Part shown: piece by piece, positions 2,172-58,761 of the stretch | How positions within the stretch are numbered: the first letter of the stretch is position 1 | Layout of the letters: each line of letters opens with the position of its first letter | Virus record (IMG/VR): IMGVR_UViG_3300025141_016157 | Coordinates: 32,001 to 96,000 of that record | Source of the DNA: a virus | Strand: one strand, 5' to 3' | DNA: 64,000 bases | The notes under the pieces: model-generated | Database searches by the model: none | The model's input: the letters and a program-made list of their open reading frames with translations, nothing else | What the model was told of the DNA's origin: nothing | Program-made: the position numbers and the translations under genes

Positions 2172-2244
2172 TAAAATATAAGATTAAAAGTTTCAAAGAA
2201 TAAATCGCAATATCTATTTTTAGATATTTATCTACAGGGTACAA

Positions 2245-2922
2245 ATGTCATCTCGTAGAAAAAGAGAGATTAAAAGAAAGCTAAGAGTACTAAGGTCAGA
2301 GCATAAGTATTTTAGAACGGCCCTGAGAGATATAAAAGACGATTTTGAGCTATATAAGTCTGAGTGGAATACTGACTTTAACACTCTAGTAAATAAATTT
2401 CAAAAAAGTGACAATTCATGCACTAAAACAGAAAAAATAATCTCACAGATAGACGAAAAACAAGGTGATAATTGTTATAATAGAGATGAAAACAAGGAAA
2501 AAATAAATAAAAACAATGCACCAAAATGGGCAAAGTCTCTTTACAAGAAAATTGCTAGAAAGACTCACCCAGACGTTGCAAGAGAGATCGATGATATTAA
2601 AAGAATGTCCTCTATTTTTCAAGATGCAGCAAAAATTATTGAATCAGCAGATTATGAAAAACTTTTTGATATTGCAATTGATCTTGGTATATCTGTAGAT
2701 TTAAACGAAGAAGAGCTTGTAGTTAGAATGAAAAAAATAGTTGCAATGTTAAGGGAGGAAATATCTAAAATAGAGGATAGCCCTGCATGGGTCTGGGGTG
2801 AATCTTTTGGAATGGATGACATAAGATTAAAAGTTGCAAAGATTTCGCTAGAGTCTATAAGCATATCAGTTGAAGATAAAAAACTTTTAGCATCTATAAA
2901 GGAAATAGAGAGCAATATATAG
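2245..2922 (+). CDS. J-domain (DnaJ-like) co-chaperone protein
   Basis: KSLYKKIARKTHPD is J-domain helix II plus the HPD motif, flanked by coiled coils. Confidence 0.7.
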   Translation: MSSRRKREIKRKLRVLRSEHKYFRTALRDIKDDFELYKSEWNTDFNTLVNKFQKSDNSCTKTEKIISQIDEKQGDNCYNRDENKEKINKNNAPKWAKSLYKKIARKTHPDVAREIDDIKRMSSIFQDAAKIIESADYEKLFDIAIDLGISVDLNEEELVVRMKKIVAMLREEISKIEDSPAWVWGESFGMDDIRLKVAKISLESISISVEDKKLLASIKEIESNI

Positions 2923-3001
2923 CATTTGAAAAAAATGATTAAATGTTTGTTTTAAAGTAATTTTTATATTAGTATAATTATAATCACACAAGAGGACTAA
3001 A

Positions 3002-4162
3002 GTGTCAGGTATTCTCGATTCAAAGACTAGAATTTTAGATGCAGTAATAACCCAAGAGGGAAAGCGCCAGATAGCAAATGGTGGACTAAGGGCAGTTTAT
3101 GCAACTGTTTCTGATAAGTCATCTTATTATGAATTTAGTGAAGCTAGTGGTTCATCAGATGCATCTAAAAGGATATATTTTGAATCACCAATAGAAGATA
3201 TAAACGATTCAATAATTATGGAATCTGATGATTCAGGAAAGCTACTTGGATATCCTGTGCAGGGCTCAGAGTTTTATAGCACTGACGGGGTTGTAACTGG
3301 AAGATCATCTGTAAGCGGAACACTAACTTATGCTACAACGGGTTCAGTTTCTGGATTTAATAGTCTTGCAGACGGCATAGTAAGCTCATCTATTGAAAGA
3401 TTTAAAAATTTATATACAATAGGGACAAGAGATGCAGGAGAGCCAGATAGCCTGCAGATGAAAATCTATCCATCGTCGTATAGCTTTACAATGAATAACA
3501 AGTATCCTTTTACAAAAGGTCCAACATCAGCAACAAGCAATGTTGACTTTATTGATCCTTTATTTTTTGATGATATGTTAGCAAATGTTGAGAATTTTAA
3601 ATATCTCCCTCCCTTAAAAAACCCGCCAGCGGAAACATCTGGAGATGATACAGATCAGCCAAGAAGCAATATGTTAGGATTGTATACAAAGTTTCAGAGA
3701 CCCGAACCCCTAGATTTACAAAAGATATTAAATCATATGAATATCTTTACAGATCTTTCAGGAAGCACTGCGATGGAAGGAGATCCAGATGCAGTTTATG
3801 ATACAAGCGAAACATCAGATGACAATCCGTATACAAATGAAAATACATCTGGTGACTACGGTGTAAGAGAGTCAGAAAGAGACGGATCTTCTCTAAATCT
3901 ATCTCTAGATCAGCTTCCAAGAGAGAGAGTTTCTGTTTTTTTTGAAACAACATCTAGAACTAACAATCTTATGATGCAAATGTTTGAGCTTGATTCAAGC
4001 TCTTCGAAGTTAAAAAAGCTAGACGTAATAGATTTTGGAAGTGTTTATGATGAAAACGACTCTATCCATCCTGAAAAACAGATATTTTTTGCAGGTAAGA
4101 TATTTATAAACTCAATCGGCTTACCTGCATTTGTCAAATTATTTACAATTATAATGGATTAA
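3002..4162 (+). CDS. Putative baseplate/tail-fibre anchoring structural protein
   Basis: N-terminus ILDAVITQEGKRQIANG is paralogous to the ORF at 13307. GTG start with GAGG SD and ATAATTA upstream. Confidence 0.5.
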   Translation: MSGILDSKTRILDAVITQEGKRQIANGGLRAVYATVSDKSSYYEFSEASGSSDASKRIYFESPIEDINDSIIMESDDSGKLLGYPVQGSEFYSTDGVVTGRSSVSGTLTYATTGSVSGFNSLADGIVSSSIERFKNLYTIGTRDAGEPDSLQMKIYPSSYSFTMNNKYPFTKGPTSATSNVDFIDPLFFDDMLANVENFKYLPPLKNPPAETSGDDTDQPRSNMLGLYTKFQRPEPLDLQKILNHMNIFTDLSGSTAMEGDPDAVYDTSETSDDNPYTNENTSGDYGVRESERDGSSLNLSLDQLPRERVSVFFETTSRTNNLMMQMFELDSSSSKLKKLDVIDFGSVYDENDSIHPEKQIFFAGKIFINSIGLPAFVKLFTIIMD

Positions 4163-4163
4163 A

Positions 4164-6914: not shown

Positions 6915-6916
6915 AA

Positions 6917-9900
6917 ATGAAACTACCTACTAACTTATCAATAAATCCCGTAAGGGACTATGCAATCGAAGCACCAAATGTTTCAAATACTTCACTTGAC
7001 AATGTTTTAAAATCAGAGCATACGTCTATGGCTTCAAGCGCTGTAGCAATTGATCAAAACTATGACAGCTTTTACTTAAATCCAAGCTTAGAATCGCTTC
7101 TAAACAAAAGAGGATTTTCAACACAAAGAGCAGAAATACTTGGAATGTTCAACTATGACCCACCATTGGCAAAATCTGAATCCGGATCATCATCAACAGA
7201 TTCATCGTTGATCATAACATCATTTGGTGAGCTATATGATTATCAGTGCCAACTTAAGCAAATGAGATACAGCGATGCATTATCATTTTTTGACCAGGTT
7301 GTTGGCTTTAATATTAGAGAATCATCAGATGGAACTAGATCCCTCTACGTCCCAGCATTTCAAAACACAAACGGAGAATCTATAGATACGCTATCTAGCC
7401 TAGAGGAGAATTATGAAAATCAAATGGAAATAGCAGATAAGGTTTTAAACTATCTTGCTGAGATATACAATGCTATTTCTGGATTCATTGATGCGCAAAA
7501 TATTTCAGATGCATATAGTACCTATATGACACTTTTAGATATAGCTGAGGTTGCATTTAAAGTTCCTGAAAATATTACACTAAGGAATCCTGTTACTAAT
7601 TCATGGAATAATATTGCAGGAATTCTGCCAGCAGGAGATATAAATGTTAGCGCACTTCCATTTCTGGATAATGAGCAGAGACTTACTGTAGGGCAATTTC
7701 TAAGAGGTGTGTTAAAAATACAAGATGATTCTGATACGTATTCTGCTCTACTTAGAGGCTCAGGAACATGCGATATGCTTAACTTGTTGCATATTATGGC
7801 AGCTGGTGCACTTGGGATAGAGGCATATGTAGGATTAAAAGAAAACGATACTGATTTTGAAACAATAAATACAAGTTATACTACTGGAAAGCTAATTGGT
7901 ACCAATGCTTATACGCCAGACTCATATCCAGATATTTTAACAAATTCAATCACTGGTGACATAGTAGAGTGGAAAGATGGAGTTGACTTTGATGTAGGTA
8001 GCTTTTTTGGTGCAGGTGTAGGTGATGCAACAGCAGATGCTACAGCTGATCCTTTTCAAGATCTAATACTAAAGAATGCTACAGGTGAAACACTTGACAT
8101 AGAGACTATTTCAATAAAACAATCTATGAATCATAACGGTACTGCTACTGATAACGGGTACTTATCAGATCTTATTCATTATGTTGGCCTTGATGAAATG
8201 CAAGTATCTGTCTTAAAGGGATCTAGCAATATCGGGGGCGTTTCAACATCATCAGTTTCGTCTATTGAAGACCTTGTAGAAAAAACAATGGGCAGGAACA
8301 TAAGTGAATCATATGATTCAATACTTGACAATCTACCTGAATCAGAAGATTGTATTACAAGGCATGTTATTACAAAAAATAGAGATACAACAACATCTGA
8401 TAGTAGGGATGCTGTAGAATCGCTGACATCTACAAACTATCAACTAGCTGGAACACTAAGTGATGTTCGATCTGGTAGATCATACTATTGTGATGAAATA
8501 CCAACAATAGAGTTTGATGAATCAATTGAAAGATTGCGCGACTTTAGAAACTCTTCTGCTAGCTTGCTATCATCAGTAAAAGATTATGCAAAGCTATCTA
8601 CATTTAAATATAGAGAATCTTATCTCAAGGATTCAAATTTTCAGTGGGGATACCTTGGAAAAGAAAGCACACTTGAAATAGTCCCAAGCACGTTTTTTCA
8701 CTATATACTGAAATCAATGAGAGATTCAATTGACACTTACATACAAGAAGATCAAGCTCATGTTGGATATGGTAATCCTACTCATGATTACAATAATTCA
8801 CTTACGTTTGTAGCAGCAGCTCTATCTACATATGATGAGGCTATAGCATATCGTGTTGCAGCACTAAATCTTTCATATGCAGATTTTGTTGACGGAAAGA
8901 TAAGCCAGTCTCAGTGGAATAGTAGAGCTAAATCTTTTGAGATTTCAGTTATCAAAAGACTAATTGAGGGACACTCTAGTGCGTGGAATGGCGGCGGCGC
9001 TTCTGGCTACGGGCACCTTATAACATATGGTAAATGCGCTGTCTCTGACGAAAAAGTCAAGCATAATGTTATATATGATCACGTGGTTGGCAACGCTAAA
9101 CTAAATAGTGATTATATTTTTAGACCATGGGACTCAGCAGGGCTTTATATTGACTCAAATGCATCAATGGCCTCAATTTTAGATACTTTCTGGAGTATGG
9201 GAGCGTCTCATGATAAAATAGAAGACATTTGGAATGTGCTTGGCGGTGCATGTAAAAATTTTGGATGGGACTCTAAATATACTAGTGATGCTCCAAGAAA
9301 TATTTTATTATCACCGTATCATGCAATGAGAAAATTTCGAGAAGATACGCGCTTAGCAAACGGAGCTGACGCACCATCCCCAGGAGATAGCGGAGCTTCG
9401 AATTCTCTAAGGTCAATCTCAGATACAAATAAGATAGTTGCATCATTTTTAGTTCAGAAAAAATTATGGAAGATAGGTCTTAAGTGTGGTCTATATATTC
9501 AAAATGAAGGACTTTTCGATATGACTAATTATTCATCTGATACAAGTGGTAGAGGAAGAATACTATATTGTTTAAACAAGAGGGGAATGACCTCATTTGT
9601 AAATGCAGTTGATTTATTTCAAAATAATCAACCCTTGGGAATGACTTTGAATGGAAAATTTTTCGCAACTAATGACGATAGTGCATATTTCGATCCAGAT
9701 ACATTACTAAACAGGAAGGGGGATTCAATAATTGATGATGATCACTATGGTAAATTTACTGCAGCTTCACCTTATGATGGGTATGGATCACCTTACTGGT
9801 CAATGGGATATGGACCGCAAATTGCAGAGATGATTGGTGTATTTAAAAATATGTTAACACCTTCAATCTGTAGAGAAAGGACTTGCCAGCTATCAATGCT

Positions 9901-11221
9901 ACTTATCGGTAGAATAATTGATCAAATAGATGGAGCATCTATTAACCTTCTAAGTGCAATAGTATCATCTGATACTCAGGAGCAGGAATATAATAATGCA
10001 CTATCTCTTGTAAAGTCAGATCCTGATTTTCAATCTTCAGCACTTCTTGGGATAACGAGAGATCAACTTACTCTTAACCGCGCAATTAAAGATTCATTTT
10101 CATCTCCAAATAGAGAGTATCCGTATCTCCCGGCATCAAAAGCTATCTTAACAAATCAGTCAAAAAATCTAACTGGATTTTTAAGTCTCGATGAAATGCT
10201 TGGAAGCAATACAGCTGGAAGAAAATTTATAGCTCCAATAGGAATACCTGCTGGGCTCGTAGAGTCACTAAGAAATAGAATGATGGATGAAACAGGCTCC
10301 ACAAAGTATAGAACTCAAGGAAACCTAGTTGAGATATCAATATGGAAAAGAGATCTCTTGCACGAAAGAACACTCTATAGTCCAAAAAAGTATGTATTTG
10401 ATATGACAAAATTTATAATAACGGGAAGGTCAGATCCAACTGCTGAGGGGGCAAATCTACTGGACGCTGCGGCAGATCCGCCAAACTCACAAGATTTTAA
10501 TACTGTAATGAGAAATGTAGTAAGTAGAAAATACTCGCCTGATGGCAATATTTCTACGACTATTGGAAAGCTTGCATATAATAATTGGGATTCAAATGAA
10601 ACTAGTTTGACATCTGAGGAAGTGTTTAAAAATCATATAGTTGATAATTATTTAAAAACATTTATGAAATTGACTTCTGGGTTTGATGTATCTGAGGATG
10701 TTTTTCCCTTTCTCGAGGGAAATGTATTTTTTGAAGGCTCAGACCCTGATCAGCAGGACCTTCTAGAATCTCTTTCAAAAACGGCAGAAGAGCTGTTTGT
10801 TGATAGAGACGCAGAGACAGCATTAAACTACAAGCGATTAATTGGAGAGATTACAAGATCAGTATATCTAAGTCCAGAAAAATATAGAAATAGAATAATA
10901 TACCCTAAGATATTTGATAGAGTTTTTTGTATAATGATCGACCCAGACGACTTTGAAATTTCAGATTCTATGTTTGATGGCGGGCCAGCTGACAGGGGTC
11001 CTGATCTTGGTTTTTTAGAATTTTCAGGTAATACAGATGAATATACACAATACTACTGCACAATTTCGATTTTGCCACCCTTGACTTGGGAGGACTATAC
11101 CTTTCGTGATTCTGGAACAGGTGAGGTTGAATCATCAGCACCTGTAGAAATGAGAGAAGTTGAAATTGATGTAAGTGATGCTGTATTGGGTGCAGATAAT
11201 ATAAAAGATAAGTTTCTATAA
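6917..11221 (+). CDS. Large hypothetical protein, probably structural (1434 aa)
   Basis: Long ORF 2 nt after the previous stop. No motif recognised. Confidence 0.45.
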   Translation: MKLPTNLSINPVRDYAIEAPNVSNTSLDNVLKSEHTSMASSAVAIDQNYDSFYLNPSLESLLNKRGFSTQRAEILGMFNYDPPLAKSESGSSSTDSSLIITSFGELYDYQCQLKQMRYSDALSFFDQVVGFNIRESSDGTRSLYVPAFQNTNGESIDTLSSLEENYENQMEIADKVLNYLAEIYNAISGFIDAQNISDAYSTYMTLLDIAEVAFKVPENITLRNPVTNSWNNIAGILPAGDINVSALPFLDNEQRLTVGQFLRGVLKIQDDSDTYSALLRGSGTCDMLNLLHIMAAGALGIEAYVGLKENDTDFETINTSYTTGKLIGTNAYTPDSYPDILTNSITGDIVEWKDGVDFDVGSFFGAGVGDATADATADPFQDLILKNATGETLDIETISIKQSMNHNGTATDNGYLSDLIHYVGLDEMQVSVLKGSSNIGGVSTSSVSSIEDLVEKTMGRNISESYDSILDNLPESEDCITRHVITKNRDTTTSDSRDAVESLTSTNYQLAGTLSDVRSGRSYYCDEIPTIEFDESIERLRDFRNSSASLLSSVKDYAKLSTFKYRESYLKDSNFQWGYLGKESTLEIVPSTFFHYILKSMRDSIDTYIQEDQAHVGYGNPTHDYNNSLTFVAAALSTYDEAIAYRVAALNLSYADFVDGKISQSQWNSRAKSFEISVIKRLIEGHSSAWNGGGASGYGHLITYGKCAVSDEKVKHNVIYDHVVGNAKLNSDYIFRPWDSAGLYIDSNASMASILDTFWSMGASHDKIEDIWNVLGGACKNFGWDSKYTSDAPRNILLSPYHAMRKFREDTRLANGADAPSPGDSGASNSLRSISDTNKIVASFLVQKKLWKIGLKCGLYIQNEGLFDMTNYSSDTSGRGRILYCLNKRGMTSFVNAVDLFQNNQPLGMTLNGKFFATNDDSAYFDPDTLLNRKGDSIIDDDHYGKFTAASPYDGYGSPYWSMGYGPQIAEMIGVFKNMLTPSICRERTCQLSMLLIGRIIDQIDGASINLLSAIVSSDTQEQEYNNALSLVKSDPDFQSSALLGITRDQLTLNRAIKDSFSSPNREYPYLPASKAILTNQSKNLTGFLSLDEMLGSNTAGRKFIAPIGIPAGLVESLRNRMMDETGSTKYRTQGNLVEISIWKRDLLHERTLYSPKKYVFDMTKFIITGRSDPTAEGANLLDAAADPPNSQDFNTVMRNVVSRKYSPDGNISTTIGKLAYNNWDSNETSLTSEEVFKNHIVDNYLKTFMKLTSGFDVSEDVFPFLEGNVFFEGSDPDQQDLLESLSKTAEELFVDRDAETALNYKRLIGEITRSVYLSPEKYRNRIIYPKIFDRVFCIMIDPDDFEISDSMFDGGPADRGPDLGFLEFSGNTDEYTQYYCTISILPPLTWEDYTFRDSGTGEVESSAPVEMREVEIDVSDAVLGADNIKDKFL

Positions 11222-11242
11222 GATTTTCGCAAGAGGGAAAAA

Positions 11243-13243
11243 ATGTCAGCAGTAATAAATACAAACCTAGAAGATAAAACAAAAATAGCATCTGATGATA
11301 GTGTTGAAACTTTTGCAGAAATGCTTGCTACTGAGCTAGGCTACGCAGGTTCATCTACTTACGTTTCTACGCCTGTGACATTTATCGATCTTGATGAAGT
11401 CAATAGCATTACATCAGAGTTTTTCTATAATTACTACACAAAAGATGAAAGAACAGTATCAACTGGAAAGTCGACAATTATAGATATAAGCTCAAATGAT
11501 CAAGATGTTGAATTTATAAAAAATCAGAGTAGAATGCCAAGGTCAGTTCTTTTAAAAATTAAATCACGAGAAAAACAAGCTTTTGGAGAAACAAGCTATC
11601 TTGGTAATTTTGCAAATTCCAATATAAACGGTAGATTTATCTCTAATAATATAGATAAGATAGTTTTTGAAGGTGCAGTTGCAAATTCACGATTTTCAAC
11701 TGTAATATTAAAAGATAATCAGATTGATGAAACTTTCTATAATCAGATAACGGGATCAATAGCATTTGATGATTCTTTTTCAAAAACTGATACTAATAGT
11801 CAATTTGTAAATGATTTGTGCGAAAAATATTTCTCACCAACTGCAGAAGCAACCCAGTCTCCCTCAACAATAAGACGAGCATTTTCAAATTTACAACCAG
11901 CTGGTGTTGCATATGCACCAACTGATGCAAGGCTTGAAAGTATAACAGAGGCAATGAGAGATGTTCGGTTTGTAGAAATAGGATTTTCAATTAATCACGC
12001 AGTTATAAACAACATGATATTAGGAAGCGTCGAAGATATGGGAAATATTTATCAGGATGAGCTTTTATCCCTAGCGGATAATGCAAAAGCAATTCAACAA
12101 AAATATGTTTCAGAAATGTCTCCATCTGTCATAGATTCTGCTGATTTTGAAATGGAAATGGCACCTATATACACTGTTACAGTAGATCAGGCTGAATCTC
12201 AAGGTCTAAATGTTAATGAATCTTCTTACCCGATAGGATTTTATATTGAAAAGGTTGAGTTTTTTACAGATGAAAACGGAATAATGACTTCAAGAAATAT
12301 GGATCCAATAGTGGTAGATTCATATGGAAGCTTTACAATTCTTGATTCTGACATAAAATATGGAGCAACATATGTCTATAATACGAAGATAATATATCTA
12401 ACAGCATATGAGGCAACAGCAATAGATCCATCTGGCGATTCGCCAGATGAAGTAGTCTTTGCCATAAGCATGGTTGCATCTGAAGGTAAAAAGACTCAAG
12501 TTGCCTGCTTAGAAAATATTCCTCCAAATCCACCCCAAAATTTAAGATTTAACTATAACTTTATGTCTAATTGTCTTGATATATTCTGGGAAGAGCCGGT
12601 AAATCCGCAAAGAGATGTTGTTAGATATCAGATATTTAGAAGAAAAAATACAAGCCAGTCGTTTGTATTGCTTTGTGAATTAGATTTTGATAATTCAACA
12701 TCAAGGGTTGTACCGCTAGAGACTGCGCCAGAAGATAAAATAATTAGAGTAACAGGTCCAAGAAAGCTTTTCAGAGATAAATCATTTGAAAAAGATTCAG
12801 ACTACATATATGCTCTTGCGTGTGTAGATGCAAGAGGGCTAACCTCATCTTACTCTGAGCAAGTAAAAGTAAGGTTTAATAGATTCAAAAATAAAATAGA
12901 AAGACAAAGGATATCTGCGCCAGGTGCTCCCAAACCATATCCCAATCTATATTTAAAAAGAGATCTGTTCGTCGATAGCATGAATTCTTCAGGTGCTAGA
13001 AGAATGAGAGTTTTCTTTGACCCTGAGTATGCTGATCTTGTTAGAACTGTTATACAGGATGCAGGAGACGGATCACAAAACAATGTAGATTCATCTCTTG
13101 ATCTAATATCAAATAATTATAAAATTCAAATGATAAATTTAGATCTTCAGAATTCACAAGTGTTCAATATAGATATAATAGATAATACAGGGCCAGCATT
13201 AGAGGTTCCTGTAACATCTGCAACAATTAAAAGCATACTGTAA
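11243..13243 (+). CDS. Structural protein with fibronectin type III-like domain
   Basis: IPPNPPQNLRF..LDIFWEEP..YQIFRR..FRD..YIYALACVD.RGL.S.YSE is an FN3-type pattern. Confidence 0.55.
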   Translation: MSAVINTNLEDKTKIASDDSVETFAEMLATELGYAGSSTYVSTPVTFIDLDEVNSITSEFFYNYYTKDERTVSTGKSTIIDISSNDQDVEFIKNQSRMPRSVLLKIKSREKQAFGETSYLGNFANSNINGRFISNNIDKIVFEGAVANSRFSTVILKDNQIDETFYNQITGSIAFDDSFSKTDTNSQFVNDLCEKYFSPTAEATQSPSTIRRAFSNLQPAGVAYAPTDARLESITEAMRDVRFVEIGFSINHAVINNMILGSVEDMGNIYQDELLSLADNAKAIQQKYVSEMSPSVIDSADFEMEMAPIYTVTVDQAESQGLNVNESSYPIGFYIEKVEFFTDENGIMTSRNMDPIVVDSYGSFTILDSDIKYGATYVYNTKIIYLTAYEATAIDPSGDSPDEVVFAISMVASEGKKTQVACLENIPPNPPQNLRFNYNFMSNCLDIFWEEPVNPQRDVVRYQIFRRKNTSQSFVLLCELDFDNSTSRVVPLETAPEDKIIRVTGPRKLFRDKSFEKDSDYIYALACVDARGLTSSYSEQVKVRFNRFKNKIERQRISAPGAPKPYPNLYLKRDLFVDSMNSSGARRMRVFFDPEYADLVRTVIQDAGDGSQNNVDSSLDLISNNYKIQMINLDLQNSQVFNIDIIDNTGPALEVPVTSATIKSIL

Positions 13244-13306
13244 GTTAATGATTAGATTTACAGAAGTTATTTATCGTAATATATAATGATGTAAGGAGTT
13301 TATAAA

Positions 13307-14014: not shown

Positions 14015-14029
14015 GAGGAAAAGAAGTAA

Positions 14030-19326: not shown

Positions 19327-19356
19327 TAATATTTATACTATGCAAGGGGTTTTGAA

Positions 19357-22907: not shown

Positions 22908-23139
22908 CACAAAGGGATTTTTTTGCGAAGTATGCGGATATCTCTCTTTGACATCAATGGATCACAGGTCAAAAATTTCAATAGGTGCTTGCAGGGGATG
23001 TGAGCTAAAGTTTTTTGAGCCAAATGTGGAAAAATGGAAAAACGGATGGCGACCAAAAAAGAGAGAGATAAACTCTTTTAATAAAGAGAATCAAAAAAGT
23101 GTCTATTCGATTTTGTCGGAAATAAATAATTACATCTAA
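22891..23139 (+). CDS. Small Zn-finger protein
   Basis: CEVC..CRGC. Overlaps the sbcDC stop, with AAGG upstream. Confidence 0.55.
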   Translation: MSCLHNTKGFFCEVCGYLSLTSMDHRSKISIGACRGCELKFFEPNVEKWKNGWRPKKREINSFNKENQKSVYSILSEINNYI

Positions 23140-29094: not shown

Positions 29095-29160
29095 CATCCA
29101 CTTTTTTTACTTTTTGCTGATAATAATTGATCCATTAGCATATTTAACATCAGGAGGAAT

Positions 29161-30643: not shown

Positions 30644-30704
30644 TAAATATTGATATAAGTTTTGTCTTTTAAGACATATTTAACTTTCGAGGAGTCATAG
30701 CAGA

Positions 30705-32156: not shown

Positions 32157-32198
32157 TTAACTCACAAATTGTTTTAAAAACTTAAAGGAAAAATAACA

Positions 32199-34233: not shown

Positions 34234-34266
34234 AAAGGGCACCTCTATGAGGTGCCCTTTTTTTTT
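34234..34266 (+). terminator. Rho-independent terminator after MCP
   Basis: AAAGGGCACCTC-TAT-GAGGTGCCCTTT followed by a T run. Confidence 0.9.
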
Positions 34267-34297: not shown

Positions 34298-34397
34298 TCT
34301 TTTTTACAAACTTAGTTGATATTTAAACATTGAGATATAATAATCTCTAATTTAATAATAAAATTACTCTCACTATACAATCATAGGAAAAAATCAA

Positions 34398-34950: not shown

Positions 34951-34991
34951 TAGACAATATAAATCTTTCTAAATATATAGATTAAATGGAG
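34951..34991 (+). promoter_or_regulatory. Duplicated promoter/RBS cassette, copy 1
   Basis: TAGACAATATAAATCTTTCTAAATATATAGATTAAATGGAG, 39/41 identical to 35377-35417. Confidence 0.7.
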
Positions 34992-35001
34992 CAAACAAGT
35001 C

Positions 35002-35376: not shown

Positions 35377-35417
35377 TAGATAATATAAATCTTTCTAAAT
35401 ATATAGATTAAACGGAG
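35377..35417 (+). promoter_or_regulatory. Duplicated promoter/RBS cassette, copy 2
   Basis: TAGATAATATAAATCTTTCTAAATATATAGATTAAACGGAG. Confidence 0.7.
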
Positions 35418-35426
35418 GTCATAAAA

Positions 35427-35761: not shown

Positions 35762-35805
35762 GTAATGTCTTTTTTTATTGTATATTTAAAATTGGGAATA
35801 GAGCA

Positions 35806-38874: not shown

Positions 38875-38934
38875 AGATTTTTGATCGTTTAAGAGATAGT
38901 TATACCTGTAAAGAGTAGAACAGGAGATTTGTCA

Positions 38935-41900
38935 ATGGCCGAACAGACATTTAAATCACCCGGGTTTTTTGAGAGAGAGATAGATCTGTCTCAGACTTCA
39001 ACTTCGGTGTCAGGAGTTCCTGCAGGAATTGCTGGAACTTCACAGATGGGACCAGCATTTGTCCCAGTTACAGTGGGTTCATTTATTGATTTTGAAAATA
39101 GATTTGGAACACTTGATCCTGACATGTTTGGGCCCTATGCGGTAAGAGAATTCTTAAAGCACAGGACAGCACTTACGTATGTAAGAGTTCTAGGAGCAGG
39201 CGCTAATTCAGCTGGAACAGACTTTATAACCACACAGGTAGCAGGAACAGTCAAAGGTGCAGGATTTATTATTCAAGGTGCTGACGCCGAAGCTGGTCAA
39301 GGACCAGATGGCGATCATAGTAGAAAGCTCGGATGTGTACAGTTTATTAGTGCTAGACACTATGTCTCAGCATCTGAAGCCGTAGGGTATCCAGTTCTTA
39401 CAGATAATATATCAGTCGGACTTGATAACAATGTTGCAAACCTTGTTAGAGCTGTTCTCATGACTCCAACAGGATCACGATTCCAGGTTTTACCTTTTGC
39501 ATCATCTTCATATCCTGTTGATGTCTTCTCATATTTAGATAATAACGATCTAGCCAAACCATCATCTTCTGGTATGTTTAAGCTAATTCTATCTTCAACT
39601 GCAGGCTCTACATTTGGATCAACAGATGGAGTTTCAGGAATAAAAATATTTACAGCATCTCTAGATCCAGGATCTGACGCATATATTTCAAAAATTCTTA
39701 ATACAGATCCTCTACAATTTCAGTCAACACAGCATTTACTTTATGCTGATTTCCCAGTTGAGAAAGAGATTGCAAGGGTCGACCTTGGATCAGAAACTAG
39801 ACCGTCCTGGACTAGCGGATCAATAGCACTTTCATCTGGATCATCATTGACATCTTCGAAGTCAGGAGCAGGATCTGTATCGTTTAATAATCTTTTTGGA
39901 AAATTTGATTCACGATATACAACACCTACAACACCATTCTTTATATCTCAACCCTACGGTGATACAGAATATAATCTATTCAGAGTTGAGACAATATCAG
40001 ATGGTGCATGGGCATCCACTAAATTCAAGATATCAATTAGGGACATTAGAAAACCACAAAGCCCTGGTCAAGATCCGTATGGAACATTTACTCTAGAGGT
40101 TAGAGATTTCTCTGATACTGATAGAAGCAGATCTGTACTTGAAAGATACACGGGATGCACTCTCAACCCTGCTAGCGACGACTATGTTGCAAAGAAAGTT
40201 GGAGACTATAAAGCATTTTATAATTTTGATGCAATTGATCCTGATGAAAGAAAAGTAGTTGTTCAAGGAAAGAATCCAAATATATCAAGCAGAATAAGAA
40301 TTGTAACAACAGATGAGCTAGATATGGGATTGATACCTGCAAATGCTATTCCGTTTGGATTTAGAGGTGTACCAGTTCTAAAGACAACTGATACACTAAC
40401 AGATAACACTGGCTCAATACGAGGAGATGTGCCAACCCCATCTGGACCGGGATCTTGTAGAAGACTATCTTCAAATATTGGCGGGTGGAGCACAGATGAT
40501 GGTTCAGGACCAGGGTCAGCAACATGGTCTCAGTTTATCACATCTTCAATTCTCCCACCTGTTCCAATGAGGTTTAAAGTTACAAAGGGAGTTGCAAACA
40601 AATCTCCAAACTTTACCGGTGAGCAGAGTGATACAGAACTCGTAGATGGAAATCTATACTGGGGAGTAAAATTTACCAGACTTGCACAATCTAGTTCAAC
40701 ACAGACTGATACGATATATAGGACAAACCTGTCTTCGATGCCAAATGGTCTTATATCTTCTTACTCGAAGCTTATAGGAATACTAAAGCTTGATACAAAT
40801 GTTACGGGCTCAGGTGCTGACAAGTTTAACAATAATAAATTCAGTCTATCAAGAGTTGCATTTTACAATGGAACGGGATCATATACTGATAGCGTTGTTG
40901 ACTCAGTTCAATCACAAATTACAGGATCTACTGTGGCACACATGATTGATGCAGCATACATTAGAGATGGAATTGTTGATCCTACACTATATACAATTGC
41001 AGACGGATCTGAGCACAATAAGCGACTAACATTCGCATCACTTGCAGCACTTACATCCTCTGTTTATTTTAATAAGTTTACTGACTTTGCAAAGTTTACA
41101 ACATTCTTCTATGGTGGGTTTGACGGATTAAACATATTAGATCCAAATATGGCAAATATGAATGATAAAGCAAGCTCTTCAGATACTGGCGGATATTCAT
41201 CTGGTGCAACCCTTGATATAGGTCTCAACAATGAGGCAAATGATTTTGGAACAGGAGATGATAATGCAATTATTCAATCGTATAGAGCTGCTGCAAGGAT
41301 CCTAACATCTGAAGTTACATCTCGTGTAAATATAGTTTCAATTCCAGGGATTAAAGATTCTACGCTTACTGACTACGTTATGGAATTATTGCCGGGATAT
41401 GGAAAAGCTTTTTATGTAGTTGATTTACCTGCTTATGATGCTGAACAGACTAGACTATTTAGAGATAGTTCAAATCGTCCAAACATAGACAAGACTTCAT
41501 CGGTATTTGCAGGACGTGCTGTTGATAATAATTACTCTGCTACTTACTTCCCGGATGTTACAATAACTGATGAGATTAACAATAGACCTGTAAGGGTTCC
41601 GGCATCAGTTGCAGTAATAGGTGCACTTGCATATAATGATAATGTATCATACCCATGGTTCGCACCTGCAGGTTTCAATAGAGCATCTTTAGGATTTGTT
41701 ACAAATACAGATGTCAGATTAAATCAGCAAGATAGAGATACTCTTTACGAAAATAGAGTCAATCCGATAGCTTCATTCCCAGGAGCTGGATTTGTAATAT
41801 TTGGGCAGAAAACTCTTCAGATCCTCAAGAGCTCTTTGGATAGAGTAAACGTCAGAAGGATGCTTCTTGAAGTCAAAAGGGTAGTCGGCGAAGTTGCAAC

Positions 41901-42153
41901 AAACATAGTATTTGAGCAAAATACGCCTGCAACTCGTGCAAGGTTTGTTTCAGAAGTTACACCACTTCTATCAAACATACAAATTCAGCAGGGGATTGAT
42001 CAGTTCAGAATAGTAATGGATTCTACAAACAACACAGATGAGGATATTGCAAACAATATTCTAAACGGTCGAATTGTAATAGTTCCGACTAGAGCAGTTG
42101 AATTTATTGCAATTGACTTTATCATAACAAATGCTGGTGTAGATTTTGTTTAG
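38935..42153 (+). CDS. Tail sheath protein 1 (gp18-like)
   Basis: SPGFFEREIDLS, GPAFVP, PWFAPAGFNR, LYENRVNPI, GQKTLQ, DRVNVRRML and PTRAVEFI. AGGAG SD lies 8 nt before the ATG at 38935. Confidence 0.93.
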   Translation: MAEQTFKSPGFFEREIDLSQTSTSVSGVPAGIAGTSQMGPAFVPVTVGSFIDFENRFGTLDPDMFGPYAVREFLKHRTALTYVRVLGAGANSAGTDFITTQVAGTVKGAGFIIQGADAEAGQGPDGDHSRKLGCVQFISARHYVSASEAVGYPVLTDNISVGLDNNVANLVRAVLMTPTGSRFQVLPFASSSYPVDVFSYLDNNDLAKPSSSGMFKLILSSTAGSTFGSTDGVSGIKIFTASLDPGSDAYISKILNTDPLQFQSTQHLLYADFPVEKEIARVDLGSETRPSWTSGSIALSSGSSLTSSKSGAGSVSFNNLFGKFDSRYTTPTTPFFISQPYGDTEYNLFRVETISDGAWASTKFKISIRDIRKPQSPGQDPYGTFTLEVRDFSDTDRSRSVLERYTGCTLNPASDDYVAKKVGDYKAFYNFDAIDPDERKVVVQGKNPNISSRIRIVTTDELDMGLIPANAIPFGFRGVPVLKTTDTLTDNTGSIRGDVPTPSGPGSCRRLSSNIGGWSTDDGSGPGSATWSQFITSSILPPVPMRFKVTKGVANKSPNFTGEQSDTELVDGNLYWGVKFTRLAQSSSTQTDTIYRTNLSSMPNGLISSYSKLIGILKLDTNVTGSGADKFNNNKFSLSRVAFYNGTGSYTDSVVDSVQSQITGSTVAHMIDAAYIRDGIVDPTLYTIADGSEHNKRLTFASLAALTSSVYFNKFTDFAKFTTFFYGGFDGLNILDPNMANMNDKASSSDTGGYSSGATLDIGLNNEANDFGTGDDNAIIQSYRAAARILTSEVTSRVNIVSIPGIKDSTLTDYVMELLPGYGKAFYVVDLPAYDAEQTRLFRDSSNRPNIDKTSSVFAGRAVDNNYSATYFPDVTITDEINNRPVRVPASVAVIGALAYNDNVSYPWFAPAGFNRASLGFVTNTDVRLNQQDRDTLYENRVNPIASFPGAGFVIFGQKTLQILKSSLDRVNVRRMLLEVKRVVGEVATNIVFEQNTPATRARFVSEVTPLLSNIQIQQGIDQFRIVMDSTNNTDEDIANNILNGRIVIVPTRAVEFIAIDFIITNAGVDFV

Positions 42154-42187
42154 CTAATAGTTAACATATAGAATGGAGATCATTTAG

Positions 42188-45100
42188 ATGGCAGAAAAAG
42201 TTTTTAAAAGCGCAGGAGTTTTCGCAACTGAGACAGACCTCTCAAGGCCTGTAGCTGCGTCGCCTACTGGTATTCCGGCAGGCATTATTGGGCCGTCAGT
42301 AGAAGGGCCGGCATTTGTACCAATTACTGTCGGGTCGTACTCGGATTTTAGAAGAGTCTTTGGTGATACTGATGGTAAGAAATTTGGACCTTTGGCTGTA
42401 TATACTTTTCTACAGCAATCAACGGCACTAACATACCTACGTGTTCTAGGAATCGGTGATGGATTAAAGAGAGATTCATCAACAGGAAAAGTAAATAGGG
42501 CAGGATTCACTGTTGGCGAGAAGATGGTTCAAAATGACGGTCTTCTTGGAGCAAACCCGTATGCAGTCGCGGCAGGTGATGAGGGTAGAACATGGTTTAT
42601 TGGTTGCTTTATGTCTGGAACTTCGGGAAGTGTCGTATTTTCTGAAGCAGGTCTTCAGGCGGGCGGAAACCAGCAAGCAGTTCCAATTATCAGAGGTATT
42701 TTGATGGCAGCATCTGGAGTAATACCTCAGCTTTCAGGTGCACACATAGGTGACATTTCAGGTCAGTCTGCACAGCCTACAAATACTGACCCAGCAGTAT
42801 TAGGATCAGCAACAACACAAGGCGGTGCATCAGGATCTGTAAACCCGTCAACAGGAGACTTTGTTCTACTCTTAAATGGGCATAAGTCAACAGACGCATA
42901 TAAGAATGTTATAACTGCATCATTTAAGCTTGGCGATAATTATCTTGCCAACAAACTAAATACAAATCTTGACAAACTTCAAGAGGCAGGCCACTATCTA
43001 TATACTCACTATGATATTAACAATTCATTTGCTGAAGTGACAGGTAGCGGAATTATAAATCCTAAAATAGTATGTCCAGCTACTGGTGCGTATCTTAACA
43101 ATACTGCACTAGAAGATATTGGATTCTTACTTACTGGATCAGGTGTAAGAGATTCTTCAACAGCAGGTGTAACACCAAATTACGAATCGTTTCAAGATAG
43201 ATTTACCACAGCTAAGTCACCATTCTTTCTTTCACAGGACTTTGGTGGAACAAAGCACAACTTGTTTAGAGTTCACGCAAGGGGTGATGGTGAATCGCCA
43301 ACAGCAAAATACAAGATATCAATTGAGAATATTTCGCCGGCATCAGAAGTTGCAACAAATCAATTTGGAACATTTGACCTGATGGTTAGATCATTTACAG
43401 ATTCTGATGAGATGCCAGAAATTATTGAGCCCTGGGTTGGTCTTACAATGGATCCTTCAAGTGAAAAATTTATCGGAAGGGTAATTGGTGATCAAAGGGT
43501 ATTTTTCGACTTTGATCAAAGTCTAACAAGTCAAAAACTTGTTGTTGAAGGAAATCATGCAGGAAACTCATCTCTAGTAAGAGTCGAGATACCAAGGGCA
43601 GTAGAGCTAGGATATGTTCCAGATAATGCACTACCAATGGGATTCAGAGGGCCTTCCCACCTTGTCTCTTCAGGGTCAGGACCTTTGTCATCATATGACG
43701 GATCGCTTCTCGGACCAGGTGGCGGAAGAAGTGATAAGCTTCAGATTACAGACGATGTATGGAAGAGAGCAGTATCTTTACCGATTAGATATAGAAAGGA
43801 TGTTAGAAAAGCTCAAACTGCAACAGAAGAAGGAATACACTTTGTGGGAGCAAATCCGTCTCTATACTGGGGTGTCCAGTTTAGAATGAGAGATCCAGAC
43901 AACTTGATAACAAATGCATTTGGAGATCGCGAACTTAGAAGTCTAAATTCAGCAACAGCTACATTTGATTCTTCAATGGAGTCTAGAACAAAATATTTTC
44001 CCAACTTTGATCCAGCAGCGTTTAAGTTTGCTGTGGGTAACAATCCCGGAGTTGCTGATGTAAACGGAACAGTTCTTGATTGTGATACATTTAATAACAA
44101 CATATTTACTCTAGAAAGAATTAGAATAAAAACTGGATCAAACGATGCATTACTGGCTGATCCACTTATGTGGAAAAGTGCATCATACATAAGAGAAGGA
44201 AGCATTGCAGCAGATCTTGGAATGAGAGCACTTAAAGTGAAAGATCTATCTCTTCAGGGAAATAGAAAATATGCGAAATACTCAACCATTTTACAGGGTG
44301 GGTACGACGGAACTGATATTTTCAATATTGATAAGAGAAGGATGTCATCTACAGCATGTAAAAGAGAAATGGATGATTCAGTAAACCAGGGTGGAACTTC
44401 AGGGGCAACAGTTGCAACATATAGAAAGTCTATTGACATAATGGGTGTCAAGGCTGATGTTGATATTAATCTTCTATCAATTCCTGGAATTAGAAACTCT
44501 GGTGTTACAGATTACGCAATTACAGCTGTTGAGTCAAGATATGACGCGATGTATGTAATGGATATTGAGCAAAGAGATGAAAATAACATGGTTATGACTG
44601 GATCAAAGGATGCTGATGGTAATATGATAGTTCCAAGTATATCAAATACGACAGCCGGATTTAGTGCAAGAGGTCTCGACTCATCATTTGCTGCAGCATA
44701 TTACCCAGATGTTAATATGACAGATCCTACAACCGGAGGAACAGTATTAACACCAGCAAGTGTTGCTGTCATGGGTGTAATGTCTCAGAATGATAAGATT
44801 GGTAGACCGTGGTTTGCACCTGCAGGCTACTCTAGAGGAAAGCTAGATTCTTCAATCTCAGGTACATCACTAAGTCTTGAAAGAGCTGACCTTAACAGAT
44901 TGTATGAAGTTAATATCAATCCACTGGTATCTTTTGCCGGAGGATCTCCGGTTGTCTGGGGGCAGAAAACATTGCAAGCAAATGCATCTGCACTTGATAG
45001 AGTTAATGTGAGAAGGCTTCTAATAGATGTTAGAAGAAAAGTCAAGAATATTGCAAATTCACTTCTCTTTGAACCCAACAGACAAGAGACATTAGACAAG

Positions 45101-45313
45101 TTTAATGCTCTTGTTAAGCCTATCATGCAGAGAATTCAGGATCAGTCAGGTGTAGATAGATTCAAGGTTATAATTGATACTACAACTACTACACAGGCTG
45201 ATGTTGAAAATAATACAATTAGAGGTAAGATATACTTACAACCAACCCGTACCGCAGAGTTTATAGCGCTAGACTTTACAGTAACAAATGCTGGCAATTT
45301 TGACAGTGTTTAA
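42188..45313 (+). CDS. Tail sheath protein 2 (gp18-like paralogue)
   Basis: SAGVFATETDLS, GPAFVP, PWFAPAGYSRG, GQKTLQ, DRVNVRRLL and PTRTAEFI. Confidence 0.93.
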   Translation: MAEKVFKSAGVFATETDLSRPVAASPTGIPAGIIGPSVEGPAFVPITVGSYSDFRRVFGDTDGKKFGPLAVYTFLQQSTALTYLRVLGIGDGLKRDSSTGKVNRAGFTVGEKMVQNDGLLGANPYAVAAGDEGRTWFIGCFMSGTSGSVVFSEAGLQAGGNQQAVPIIRGILMAASGVIPQLSGAHIGDISGQSAQPTNTDPAVLGSATTQGGASGSVNPSTGDFVLLLNGHKSTDAYKNVITASFKLGDNYLANKLNTNLDKLQEAGHYLYTHYDINNSFAEVTGSGIINPKIVCPATGAYLNNTALEDIGFLLTGSGVRDSSTAGVTPNYESFQDRFTTAKSPFFLSQDFGGTKHNLFRVHARGDGESPTAKYKISIENISPASEVATNQFGTFDLMVRSFTDSDEMPEIIEPWVGLTMDPSSEKFIGRVIGDQRVFFDFDQSLTSQKLVVEGNHAGNSSLVRVEIPRAVELGYVPDNALPMGFRGPSHLVSSGSGPLSSYDGSLLGPGGGRSDKLQITDDVWKRAVSLPIRYRKDVRKAQTATEEGIHFVGANPSLYWGVQFRMRDPDNLITNAFGDRELRSLNSATATFDSSMESRTKYFPNFDPAAFKFAVGNNPGVADVNGTVLDCDTFNNNIFTLERIRIKTGSNDALLADPLMWKSASYIREGSIAADLGMRALKVKDLSLQGNRKYAKYSTILQGGYDGTDIFNIDKRRMSSTACKREMDDSVNQGGTSGATVATYRKSIDIMGVKADVDINLLSIPGIRNSGVTDYAITAVESRYDAMYVMDIEQRDENNMVMTGSKDADGNMIVPSISNTTAGFSARGLDSSFAAAYYPDVNMTDPTTGGTVLTPASVAVMGVMSQNDKIGRPWFAPAGYSRGKLDSSISGTSLSLERADLNRLYEVNINPLVSFAGGSPVVWGQKTLQANASALDRVNVRRLLIDVRRKVKNIANSLLFEPNRQETLDKFNALVKPIMQRIQDQSGVDRFKVIIDTTTTTQADVENNTIRGKIYLQPTRTAEFIALDFTVTNAGNFDSV

Positions 45314-45362
45314 AATGAAGTAGCGTTATACTTATAATTTGAAACCTTAGGAGAATATTCAG

Positions 45363-47059: not shown

Positions 47060-47099
47060 ACTTTCTAAAGGTATATTTACCACTGTAGGAGAATAGTGC

Positions 47100-49529: not shown

Positions 49530-49541
49530 TATAGGAAAGAT

Positions 49542-53389: not shown

Positions 53390-53394
53390 TATAA

Positions 53395-56934: not shown

Positions 56935-56943
56935 AATAACATA

Positions 56944-56972
56944 TTGAAAATACAGGGATTGGATGTTATAAT
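56944..56972 (+). promoter_or_regulatory. Strong sigma70-like promoter (extended -10)
   Basis: TTGAAA-N17-TATAAT with TGn. The ATG at 56979 sits at the predicted +1. Confidence 0.75.
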
Positions 56973-56978
56973 CAATCT

Positions 56979-58163
56979 ATGATTTTAGCAATTTCATCTC
57001 GAACAATAGGGTCTGATCTCAATTTAATCTTCGATGGATCAGAATGGTCATGGTCAAAGAATTTTCCGAAAGAATCTCTTCTCTGGGGTTTTGAAGACTA
57101 TAGAGATTTAAGAGATGCAGCTAGCTCACTAAAGCTAGATATTCCAGAATTTTGGAATACACCGTGGGGAAATGCTCAATCACACGTTCAAAAAAAGTTT
57201 TCATATGTAAAGTGGCAACATGCACTCCCGGTATCACAGTGGAAAGATATAGTAACAAGGCTTGTAGATCAGCTCTGGAGACATTTCTCATGTGAAGATA
57301 ACAGTTACTATGTTAGTACTCACATAAGAAATCGTAGAATCACCCAGGGACTCTCTAGGCCTATTGTATCGGACGCTCTGTGTAGGGAGAAGATAGATAG
57401 CGCAAAGAACGGAAAAAGAGGGCTTGTAGAAAGATTTTTGCCTATAGATGATGGAAAGCCAGAAAGGTCGATATACTCATTTTCAAACACAGTTACTGGT
57501 AGAATGACAATAAAAAAAGGTCCAAACATTCTTACTTTAAAAAAAGAAGATAGAAATATTCTTAAATCTAGATTTAAGAATGGAAAACTTATAGAGATAG
57601 ACCTTCAATCTGCAGAGCCAAGAGTTGCACTTTCTATGTTTGACAAACATATAGACGGAGACATATACAGTGAGATAATAAAGTCGCTTGGCATGAATAT
57701 TACAAGAGATATATCAAAAATTGCAACAATATCAGCACTCTATGGTGCATCACATCATGCTTTGTCATCACATGTTTCAAATAGCTCTGATGCAATGAAA
57801 ATCATAGATTCAGTAAAGGAGTACTTTGGAGTCAGGCATTTAGAAAAAATGATTATAGATCAACACAGTGAGAACTCGTATATTACAAATACGCATGGTA
57901 GAAAAATCTTTTCAGAATCAGCCAGCGTTAATCATTTAATACAGTCATCTACTGTAGATGTTGCATTTGATGTTTTCGAATTGATTATAGGAAAGATAAA
58001 AGAGTTGAAAATAGATGCAGTTCCAGTGTATATTATACACGATGCTATTATCTTCGATGCTAGAGAAAAAGATCTTGAAAAAATTTATAAAATATGTGAA
58101 GATGGGTTTGTATCAAAAACTGTGAAGACTAGATTTCCAGTTAAAATAAAGGAGATAGAATGA
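56979..58163 (+). CDS. Minimal family A DNA polymerase (polymerase domain only)
   Basis: TVTGRMT..GPN, motif A DLQSAEPR, motif B RDISKIATISALYG, NHLIQS and motif C IIHDAIIFD. Confidence 0.85.
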   Translation: MILAISSRTIGSDLNLIFDGSEWSWSKNFPKESLLWGFEDYRDLRDAASSLKLDIPEFWNTPWGNAQSHVQKKFSYVKWQHALPVSQWKDIVTRLVDQLWRHFSCEDNSYYVSTHIRNRRITQGLSRPIVSDALCREKIDSAKNGKRGLVERFLPIDDGKPERSIYSFSNTVTGRMTIKKGPNILTLKKEDRNILKSRFKNGKLIEIDLQSAEPRVALSMFDKHIDGDIYSEIIKSLGMNITRDISKIATISALYGASHHALSSHVSNSSDAMKIIDSVKEYFGVRHLEKMIIDQHSENSYITNTHGRKIFSESASVNHLIQSSTVDVAFDVFELIIGKIKELKIDAVPVYIIHDAIIFDAREKDLEKIYKICEDGFVSKTVKTRFPVKIKEIE

Positions 58164-58741
58164 CCTCAAAAATAGAAGAAAAAATAAGATTAAATTGGGA
58201 AAAATACCAAATGCTATCAGAAAAACTTGGTGACGAAAATATAAATATTTTTCTTGAATTTATGGGTGAAAGGCTTGTCATGTGTCCTGCATCGCTTAAA
58301 GAAAATGAGTATAACTCAAGACCTGGTGGGCTTATTGAACATGCACTAGATGTTGCATTAGCAATGAAATCTATTAATGAAGCTTTAGACCTTGGTGTTT
58401 CAACATCATCTATTTTAAAAGTTGGTCTTTTTCATGAAGTTGGAAAGATAGGAGATGAGGAGAATTCTTGGGTAGTTGAACAAGATTCTGACTGGCATCG
58501 CGAAAAGCTTAAGCAAAATTATAAATATAATGAAAATGCTCCTAAGATGTCTATATCGCATAGAACACTATATCTACTTCAAAAATTTAATATTAATCTT
58601 ACACAAGATGAGTGGATTGCAATTCAGATTGCACCCGGATCACACTATGAAGAGAATAGGTTTTATGTCGGATCAGAACCTCCACTAGGTATCCTTTTAC
58701 AAAAAGCTAAGTCTTTAGTAATTCATCAGTCAACAAGCTAG
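58160..58741 (+). CDS. HD-superfamily protein (degenerate: HE instead of HD)
   Basis: CPAS...GGLIEHALDV...LFHEVGKIG...LT.DEWIAI. Confidence 0.7.
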   Translation: MTSKIEEKIRLNWEKYQMLSEKLGDENINIFLEFMGERLVMCPASLKENEYNSRPGGLIEHALDVALAMKSINEALDLGVSTSSILKVGLFHEVGKIGDEENSWVVEQDSDWHREKLKQNYKYNENAPKMSISHRTLYLLQKFNINLTQDEWIAIQIAPGSHYEENRFYVGSEPPLGILLQKAKSLVIHQSTS

Positions 58742-58761
58742 GAATAGAATATTTATATGAT

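Follow-up and report, generated by a model that had tools for sequence, protein, structure and literature searches.

Redirection of the host RNA polymerase to a short -10-type box by a phage-encoded sigma factor is well known from bacteriophage T4. The late promoters of this phage carry TATAAATA at positions -13 to -6, which is read by the sigma factor gp55 together with gp33 and the gp45 sliding clamp (PMC7892883, PMC2988020). In the T4 gp55 complex, the non-template adenine at -12 is flipped onto Y97 and the adenines at -9 and -8 enter pockets that include H95 and T99 (PMC7892883), and the C-terminal clamp-binding tail of gp55 is acidic-hydrophobic (SLDFLYEAND; PMC2988020). Late-promoter variants of the T4-related phages KVP40, 44RR, S-PM2, and Aeh1 (a/gC at -13/-12) have been described in silico (PMC2988020). 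Here we analyzed a 64,000-nucleotide (nt) stretch of viral DNA, hereafter the window, which comprises bases 32001-96000 of the 160,346-bp linear IMG/VR virus record IMGVR_UViG_3300025141_016157 and for which a first-pass annotation had proposed the heptamer ATANTTA as a phage late promoter. We found that ATANTTA is a genuine element before structural-gene operons, conserved and specific in both strand and position. We propose, with a probability of roughly 0.6, that the heptamer (in its broader form ATAnnTA, usually followed by T) is the -10-like core of a phage-specific promoter class read by P0002, a divergent sigma factor candidate encoded by the same phage.

The 13 copies of ATANTTA named by the first-pass annotation are all present at the coordinates it gave, on the plus strand, with T at the degenerate position N in 8 of them, A in 2, G in 2, and C in 1. 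The distance from the end of the motif to the start codon, which had been put at 14-33 nt for most copies, is 14-32 nt at 11 sites, the exceptions being those at 34319 (72 nt) and 58749 (6 nt). In the window as a whole, the heptamer occurs 81 times compared to 79.3±8.6 times in shuffled sequences, which is the chance level, and the case for ATANTTA therefore rests wholly on position. Together with a G+C content of just 27.5% in the intergenic DNA, this agreement is what would be seen if the motif were a chance product of A+T-rich intergenic DNA, an explanation that we regard as hardly credible. It is refuted by shuffles of the intergenic DNA, by the opposite strand, by permuted controls, and above all by the conservation of the motif amid diverged flanks. 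In the 1,944 bases of intergenic DNA in the window, 12 plus-strand copies were found compared to 3.9±1.9 in dinucleotide shuffles (maximum of 11 in 500 shuffles), an approximately 3-fold excess, and the 4 copies on the minus strand showed no enrichment. For the whole genome, 26 copies were counted compared to 11.9±3.5 expected, with 12 on the minus strand. Upstream gaps of 18 nt or more are found at 74 genes, of which 26 have ATANTTA 5-40 nt upstream, compared to 6-14 of 74 for four composition-matched permutations.

The same positional bias was observed in related phages. Approximately 17% of 2,177 non-redundant sites pooled from the fetched relatives fall 16-38 nt before an open reading frame (ORF) start, compared to 3-4% for reversed or permuted controls. 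A slight excess was also seen in the relatives for sites lying 3-6 nt before starts (22 compared to 7 and 3 in controls), which would give leaderless transcripts. Motif discovery by expectation maximization on upstream regions was not decisive, returning diffuse A+T-rich models in which ATAaTTA/ATAtTTA and tTgTAAA recurred, and the upstream k-mer statistics were dominated by the AGGAG ribosome-binding site.

The phage record has a G+C content of 37%, and 157 of its 163 called genes lie on the plus strand; its completeness was estimated at 58% by CheckV. The major capsid protein is gp23-like, the nearest cultured phages being Flavobacterium phage immuto (47% identity), Microcystis phage Mel-JY01, and Rhodothermus phage RM378. 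In a preprint, immuto is clustered with 13 uncultured phages of 155-190 kb that encode a divergent family-A polymerase (bioRxiv 10.1101/2024.04.26.591309). A megablast search with 20 kb of the window against the phage collection returned no match, and IMG/VR contains more than 599 relatives of the tail-tube protein. The phage is a member of a very large, almost wholly uncultured group related to immuto and Mel-JY01.

Conservation was assessed by scoring the exact motif in unique orthologous upstream regions of IMG/VR relatives. Across hundreds of related phages, nine of the 13 sites retain the heptamer while its flanks diverge. For the tail-tube gene, 80 loci were fetched (71-94% protein identity), the upstream DNA of which is not alignable, and 46 of 54 unique regions have ATANTTA at a distance of 17-38 nt from the start, in some of them surrounded by G+C-rich DNA. 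Neighboring genes that lack the motif in the window have it in 0-12% of their orthologous regions, with the exception of g49775 (6 of 19). The motif is absent before the major capsid gene at 32199 and from all 45 of its orthologous upstream regions, and this gene is therefore evidently co-transcribed with the gene 5' of it. Outside the window, the orthologues of two ORFans keep the motif in all cases (g140256, 8 of 8; g143138, 4 of 4), with all four bases at N, and only 1 of 33 orthologues of the gene for sigma-A, a second sigma factor discussed below, has it. No orthologues of the gene behind the 34319 site were found among the IMG/VR relatives, and relatives of the proteins encoded at 3002, 4164, and 53692 were likewise looked for and not found. 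A division of the motif into two classes, GAATAATTA before non-structural genes and ATATTTA before structural genes, was rejected because all four bases replace one another at N in orthologous sites.

As in T4, the element is placed directly before virion genes, namely those for sheath, tube, adaptor, baseplate wedge, and protease and the gene 5' of the capsid gene, 14-38 nt before their starts. All sites given below are on the plus strand. The 483-amino-acid (aa) gene at 30705, 5' of the major capsid gene, has ATATTTA at 30676-30682, 22 nt upstream, which is exact in 43 and conforms to ATAnnTA in all 48 orthologous regions. ATATTTA at 35782-35788 lies 17 nt before the head-tail adaptor gene at 35806 (phrog_211) and is retained by 14 of 17 and 9 of 10 orthologues in two sets. 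The two tandem tail-sheath paralogues (1,072 and 1,041 aa; 38935-45313), a layout kept in relatives, each have their own ATAGTTA. The copy at 38896-38902, 32 nt before the ATG of sheath 1 at 38935 (phrog_23), is found in 34 of 42 orthologues and has a GA(C/T)-TTTTG element upstream; the copy at 42157-42163, 24 nt before the sheath 2 gene at 42188, is exact in 26 of 38, the rest reading ATAGATA or ATATGTA. The tail-tube gene at 45363 (phrog_4542) is preceded at 28 nt by ATACTTA (45328-45334), and the 809-aa gene at 47100 at 20 nt by ATATTTA (47073-47079), which is present in 4 of 4 orthologous regions.

Closer to the beginning of the window, ATATTTA at 2224-2230 lies 14 nt before the ATG at 2245 of a 225-aa protein belonging to an unknown PHROG family, and ATAATTA at 2974-2980 lies 21 nt before the GTG at 3002 of a 386-aa gene. 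ATATTTA at 19329-19335, 21 nt before the 118-aa gene at 19357, is exact in 13 of 13 unique orthologous regions. ATAATTA at 23126-23132 precedes by 19 nt the 128-aa gene at 23152, which heads a block extending to the 680-aa gene at 25180, and is exact in 30 and ATAnnTA in 38 of 39 regions. The copy before the 80-aa gene at 29164 (ATATTTA, 29140-29146, 17 nt upstream) is exact in 5 of 22 regions and ATAnnTA in 22 of 22, mostly as ATATGTA. Two sites are less clear. The assignment of ATATTTA at 34319-34325 is weaker because its distance of 72 nt to the 161-aa gene at 34398 is unusually long, and ATATTTA at 58749-58755, 6 nt before the ATG at 58762 of a 572-aa gene, marks either a leaderless start or a chance copy. 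The relaxed form ATATATA was found before three further window genes. The copy at 13279-13285 lies 21 nt before the 235-aa gene at 13307, whose homologues in immuto and Mel-JY01 have exact ATATTTA upstream; those at 34973-34979 and 35399-35405 lie 22 nt before 35002 and 21 nt before 35427, respectively. The latter two are contained in a repeat of approximately 40 nt (GATAATATAAATCTTTCTAAATATATAGATTAAA(T/C)GGAG) at 34955-35001 and 35381-35426, before two small genes (121 and 80 aa) 3' of the capsid gene.

The motif heads gene blocks and follows terminators, without copies before tightly coupled downstream genes, which is the layout of a promoter. A strong intrinsic terminator after the capsid gene (34234-34260, plus strand), with a 12-pair stem containing 7 G-C pairs and followed by a T run, lies upstream of the motif at 34319. 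Since the heptamer always occurs in the sense orientation, just 5' of the Shine-Dalgarno (SD) sequence and with 16-38 nt separating it from the start codon, it could instead act in RNA, where it would serve as a site of processing or, as an A/U-rich element of the 5' leader, enhance translation. We consider such a role very unlikely: only the first gene of a block is marked, many SD-led genes including the very highly expressed capsid gene lack the motif, its distance to the SD sequence varies by more than 20 nt, and it follows terminators and is kept in immuto, where SD-type leaders are absent. A set of five fixed bases that flank free central positions is, moreover, the pattern of contacts made by the T4 sigma-2 domain (PMC7892883).

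Inexact orthologous sites read ATAGATA, ATATATA, ATACATA, ATAAATA, and ATATGTA, which leaves A-T-A-n-n-T-A as the invariant bases; T is the preferred base at position 5 and is also favored right after the motif. This broader core includes ATAAATA of T4, and the variants, judged by their sequence, link the motif to the T4 form. A strictly -10-only promoter, as originally proposed, was not borne out by the aligned orthologous promoters. A G lies 20 nt upstream of the first A of the motif in 73 of 105 and in approximately 134 of 235 orthologous sites (~57%, ten promoters), compared to a background of ~20%; part of this signal at sheath 2 stems from conserved coding sequence. In the present genome, 11 of 33 sites have this G. 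The aligned orthologous promoters contain no conserved -35 hexamer, and the G is often found within TGTAA or GAC. Before the 483-aa gene at 30705, its context is (T/A)TGTAA-TTT (30655-30662 and orthologues), with TGTAA at -21 to -17 in relatives, and before the sheath 1 and tube genes of relatives it is GGGAC-GTTTTTG or TAGAC-ATTTG. This G may offer the sigma-4-like domain of P0002 a -35-type contact.

If the -10 hexamer is read as TAnTTA, the upstream G becomes the G of TTGnnn at a 17-nt spacer, and the G is indeed often part of TTGnnn. This spacing would suit a -10 region (nATAnT) recognized by the host housekeeping sigma without any phage factor, as would the match of ATAATT and TATATT to TATAAT at 5 of 6 positions and the presence of TTGAAA-17-TATAAT promoters, which the phage clearly also uses. 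However, the base preceding ATA is not conserved, no T-12 is conserved, N is freely C or G, the extra T-A positions are invariant, and the TAnTTA register ends in an invariant A where sigma70 needs T-7. Matches to sigma70-type promoters are not enriched in the structural or the replication region, and in the former they lie below shuffled sequences (44 compared to 52±7). In addition, the motif persists across phages of Bacteroidota, Cyanobacteria, and an SD-using marine host, the primary sigmas of which differ. Recognition by the housekeeping sigma is thus unlikely.

The first-pass annotation had associated the motif with structural genes and had set it apart from sigma70 promoters before four replication genes. 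The association with structural genes stood, and exclusivity did not: elsewhere in the genome, the motif precedes not only the head-maturation protease gene but also a nucleotide-sugar epimerase gene, a protease-like gene, and many ORFans. Sigma70 promoters were recovered for two of the four replication genes. The PolA-like gene at 56979 (394 aa) is preceded by TTGAAA-17-(TG)TATAAT at 56944-56972 (plus strand), which matches the consensus at 11 of 12 positions and has the TG in addition. A leaderless mRNA is suggested for this gene because its near-consensus extended -10 promoter stops 6 nt before the ATG. The 388-aa gene at 61691, called RecA in the annotation, follows TTGAAC-17-TATATT at 61640-61668 (plus strand). 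The SSB-like gene has no good match to a sigma70 promoter, and the 572-aa gene at 58762, which we took to be the annotated primase, has no family match and is itself preceded by ATATTTA. The capsid and SSB-like genes have a common leader, ATTG..TTAAAAACT(T/A)AAAGGAAAAA(A)ATAAC-ATG, at 32157-32198 and 60749-60795, which does not contain ATANTTA and may be a shared translation-initiation region of highly expressed genes. Similar AAAGGAAAAAA leaders precede the genes at 65217 and 73460 on the scale of the window, just past its end.

A late sigma factor had been predicted to be encoded outside the window, and a divergent candidate, P0002, was found at 9458-10195 of the genome, 22 kb upstream of the window and just before the baseplate block. 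The 245-aa protein matches phrog_234, annotated as 'late sigma transcription factor', over 144 of 181 positions with an E-value of 1.8e-4 (9.6e-6 per genome). Not one of its 1,803 homologues carries a functional name, and nearly all come from metagenome assemblies, many of them marine (Tara). An AlphaFold (AF2) model built on 34 homologues had a pLDDT (predicted local distance difference test) score of 79, and all of the top 50 PDB matches returned for it by Foldseek were sigma factors. In this model, a sigma-2 domain is followed by a helix-loop-helix as in PDB 7D7C chain F, and a further helical domain, comprising residues ~150-236, can be aligned with region 4, so that the absence of sigma-4 typical of gp55 does not apply. 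The alignment of the model to the full-length sigmas sigB, sigE, and sigS runs to residues 236-245. Its modeled structure thus predicts that P0002 joins a sigma-4-like domain to a sigma-2/helix-loop-helix module similar to that of gp55. In the marine clade, the C-terminus of P0002 has the consensus D-x-F-D-I-F-F (GDFFLFFGE in the present phage), and the immuto and Mel-JY01 homologues lack this acidic-hydrophobic tail.

A pairwise alignment of P0002 with gp55, itself weak (E 0.45), places the family-invariant Y101 of P0002 opposite Y97 of gp55, and F99 and N103 opposite H95 and T99. The motif keeps A at the equivalent of -12 and departs from TATAAATA exactly at -9 and -8. This residue correspondence is a weaker, structure-based hint at P0002 as the reader of the motif. 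The gene directly 3' of P0002 encodes P0004 (10197-10559 of the genome, 120 aa), a predicted long helical hairpin with 797 homologues that have no functional name. In the same place, immuto and Mel-JY01 have small genes (116 and 131 aa) without detectable similarity to P0004. P0004, considered as a gp33 analogue, had no gp33 match and no informative PDB match, and a 182-aa gene at 11989-12537 of the genome was rejected as a sigma factor, having no family match and a hydrophobic-acidic composition.

The genome also encodes a bona fide member of the sigma70 family, sigma-A (143940-144665 of the genome), with regions 1.2, 2, and 3 and only the start of region 4 (Pfam r1.2, r2, and r3; phrog_351, E 1e-65). 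Its gene is followed by a 97-aa gene (joint span 143940-144970), and in relatives its promoter reads CGTGC(A/G)-N17-(TG)nTATAAT. Because it lacks most of region 4, sigma-A would be expected to use promoters dominated by the -10 element, and it could read the motif together with the small protein encoded 3' of it. However, no homologue of sigma-A, nor any other Sigma70_r2 match, was detected in the complete genomes of immuto and Mel-JY01, both of which are rich in the motif before structural genes and, like the present phage, encode P0002. We therefore consider a role of sigma-A quite unlikely. In the phage collection, homologues of P0002 were found only in immuto (32% identity), Mel-JY01 (27-28%), and one uncultured 484-kb phage, and these are the records that top the capsid search. 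P0002 is the sole sigma-like gene common to the present phage, immuto, and Mel-JY01. The search of the genome for a phage RNA polymerase, which had been considered in place of a sigma factor, did not detect one: no T7-type enzyme (PF00940) was found in the three genomes by a search that had no positive control, and no multisubunit enzyme (PF00562) was found in them by a search with good controls.

In immuto, ATATTTA ranks first among the enriched upstream 7-mers (38 of 98 regions compared to 7 expected; 3 on the other strand), and (A/C)TATTTATAA precedes the sheath and tube homologues as well as those of the window genes at 23540 and 13307. In Mel-JY01, ATATTTAT occurs in 16 upstream regions compared to 1.7 expected, with none on the other strand, and lies before structural homologues. 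Both phages have the motif before sheath, tube, or portal-region homologues. The hosts of motif-bearing phages include Bacteroidota, Cyanobacteria, and an SD-using marine host, and the primary sigma of Bacteroidota differs in specificity (-33 TTTG, -7 TAnnTTTG). We assigned the motif to P0002 because the cis element travels with the phage rather than with the host, and because the phages share a single sigma-like gene. As a separate observation, the 61-76 kb region of immuto contains approximately 20 composites of the form AGTTGC-N19-(C/T)RTATATTTAGGTATCAATAATTAAAAC, each with two ATANTTA copies 7 nt apart, which look like a Bacteroidota-type early promoter cassette. Mel-JY01 has separate enriched upstream words, AAGTTCTTGCATA ... 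CGTATATT, with GTTCTTGC in 6 regions compared to 0.02 expected, which probably represent an early promoter class of this phage.

Based on these results, we propose the following mechanism. The P0002 gene would be expressed from an early or middle sigma70-type promoter, and its product would bind the host RNA polymerase core. The gp55-like sigma-2/helix-loop-helix module would then read ATAnTTA on the non-template strand, possibly with a weak -35-type contact between the sigma-4-like domain and the G 20 nt upstream. Transcription would start approximately 6-7 nt 3' of the motif, giving 5' leaders of ~10-30 nt that contain the AGGAG ribosome-binding site. This promoter class would drive the virion operons, namely the baseplate genes, the block from 23152 to the 680-aa gene, the scaffold-like and capsid genes, the adaptor, both sheaths, the tube, the 809-aa gene, and the head protease, as well as a set of conserved ORFans.

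Several points weigh against this proposal. Promoter function, the predicted start site, and late timing are deduced from the position of the motif, the terminator-then-motif layout, and gene content, and the pairing of sigma with promoter is a proposal as well. Since the record is only 58% complete, other factors are possibly encoded in unseen DNA, and since the motif precedes many non-structural genes, 'late' may be too narrow a term. At the sequence level, P0002 is only weakly linked to gp55 (BLASTP E 0.45, hhalign E 0.12), and a query with T4 gp55 found no match in the phage genome. Neither a PDB sequence-profile search with the P0002 family returned a sigma factor nor did P0002 itself match Sigma70_r2, Sigma70_r4, or any other Pfam family; 9 of its 34 homologues match Sigma70_r2 at E<=1 (best 0.004), all under the cut-off. 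phrog_234 at E<=1 also matches 8 of 14 control bacterial genomes, and P0002 is structurally as near to extracytoplasmic function (ECF)-type sigmas as to gp55. In immuto, the heptamer is also part of a repeated composite, AGTTGC-N19-TATATTTAGGTATCAATAATTA, before approximately 20 small genes, which looks host-sigma-dependent. Nevertheless, the evidence from the predicted fold places P0002 in the sigma superfamily.

No description of an ATANTTA consensus or of the P0002 family was found in the open-access literature searched. A defined consensus with a named candidate sigma would allow the annotation of operons and of a 'late' regulon in metagenomic genomes, and approximately 1,800 hypothetical proteins would gain a function. 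The system would also provide a natural experiment on the change of base specificity of a gp55-type sigma at the flipped positions -9 and -8, and two cultured relatives make the prediction directly testable.

Compared to described systems, the element is like the T4 late promoter in being a short A+T element at -10 directly before virion genes. The fixed A-T-A...T-A is common to ATAAATA and ATAnTTA, and a few orthologous sites in relatives read ATAAATA. The tail of marine-clade P0002 (GDFFLFFGE in the present phage) is a possible counterpart of the clamp-binding SLDFLYEAND of gp55 (PMC2988020). In contrast to T4, where -9 and -8 are two flipped adenines (PMC7892883), -9 is free and -8 is T (or G/A), and none of the 74 upstream regions of this genome contains TATAAATA or ATAAATA, so that the box is not of the T4 type. 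A weak -35-like G is present, P0002 has its own sigma-4-like domain, and no gp33 or gp45 homologue was found in the record, the search for a sliding clamp (PF02768, PF02916) giving no match in a record that is 58% complete. The replication genes of the group also differ from those of T4, in that a divergent family-A polymerase occurs alongside a regular DNA polymerase, which belongs to family A, B, or C (bioRxiv 10.1101/2024.04.26.591309). The variants of KVP40, 44RR, S-PM2, and Aeh1 offer a parallel in that they too represent a family-specific drift of a gp55-type box found by upstream-motif analysis (PMC2988020), but they retain the AAATA core, whereas here the change lies inside the core and the phage stands outside the Straboviridae-type set of replication and transcription genes.

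Unlike the ECF-type sigmas composed of sigma-2 and sigma-4 and the gp28 and gp33/34 cascade of SPO1, P0002 has no significant Pfam sigma match, and recognition would depend mostly on a -10-like element with one semi-conserved upstream base. The ECF consensus GGAAC...CGTC and the SPO1 consensus sequences are unrelated to ATANTTA. We tentatively raise the possibility, against which the odds still stand, that P0002 represents an 'unsplit' T4 late apparatus, in which the sigma-2/helix-loop-helix module, a sigma-4-like domain doing the job of gp33, and, in the marine clade, a clamp-binding tail are joined in one protein, and that ATAnnTA is an ancestral, looser late promoter kept across at least three host phyla. 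If so, late transcription would be tied to replication in a very large group of ocean phages with non-T4 replisomes. What is new relative to T4 is that core positions of the box have changed, that the candidate sigma has kept a sigma-4-like domain, and that the system is distributed very widely in marine metagenomes.

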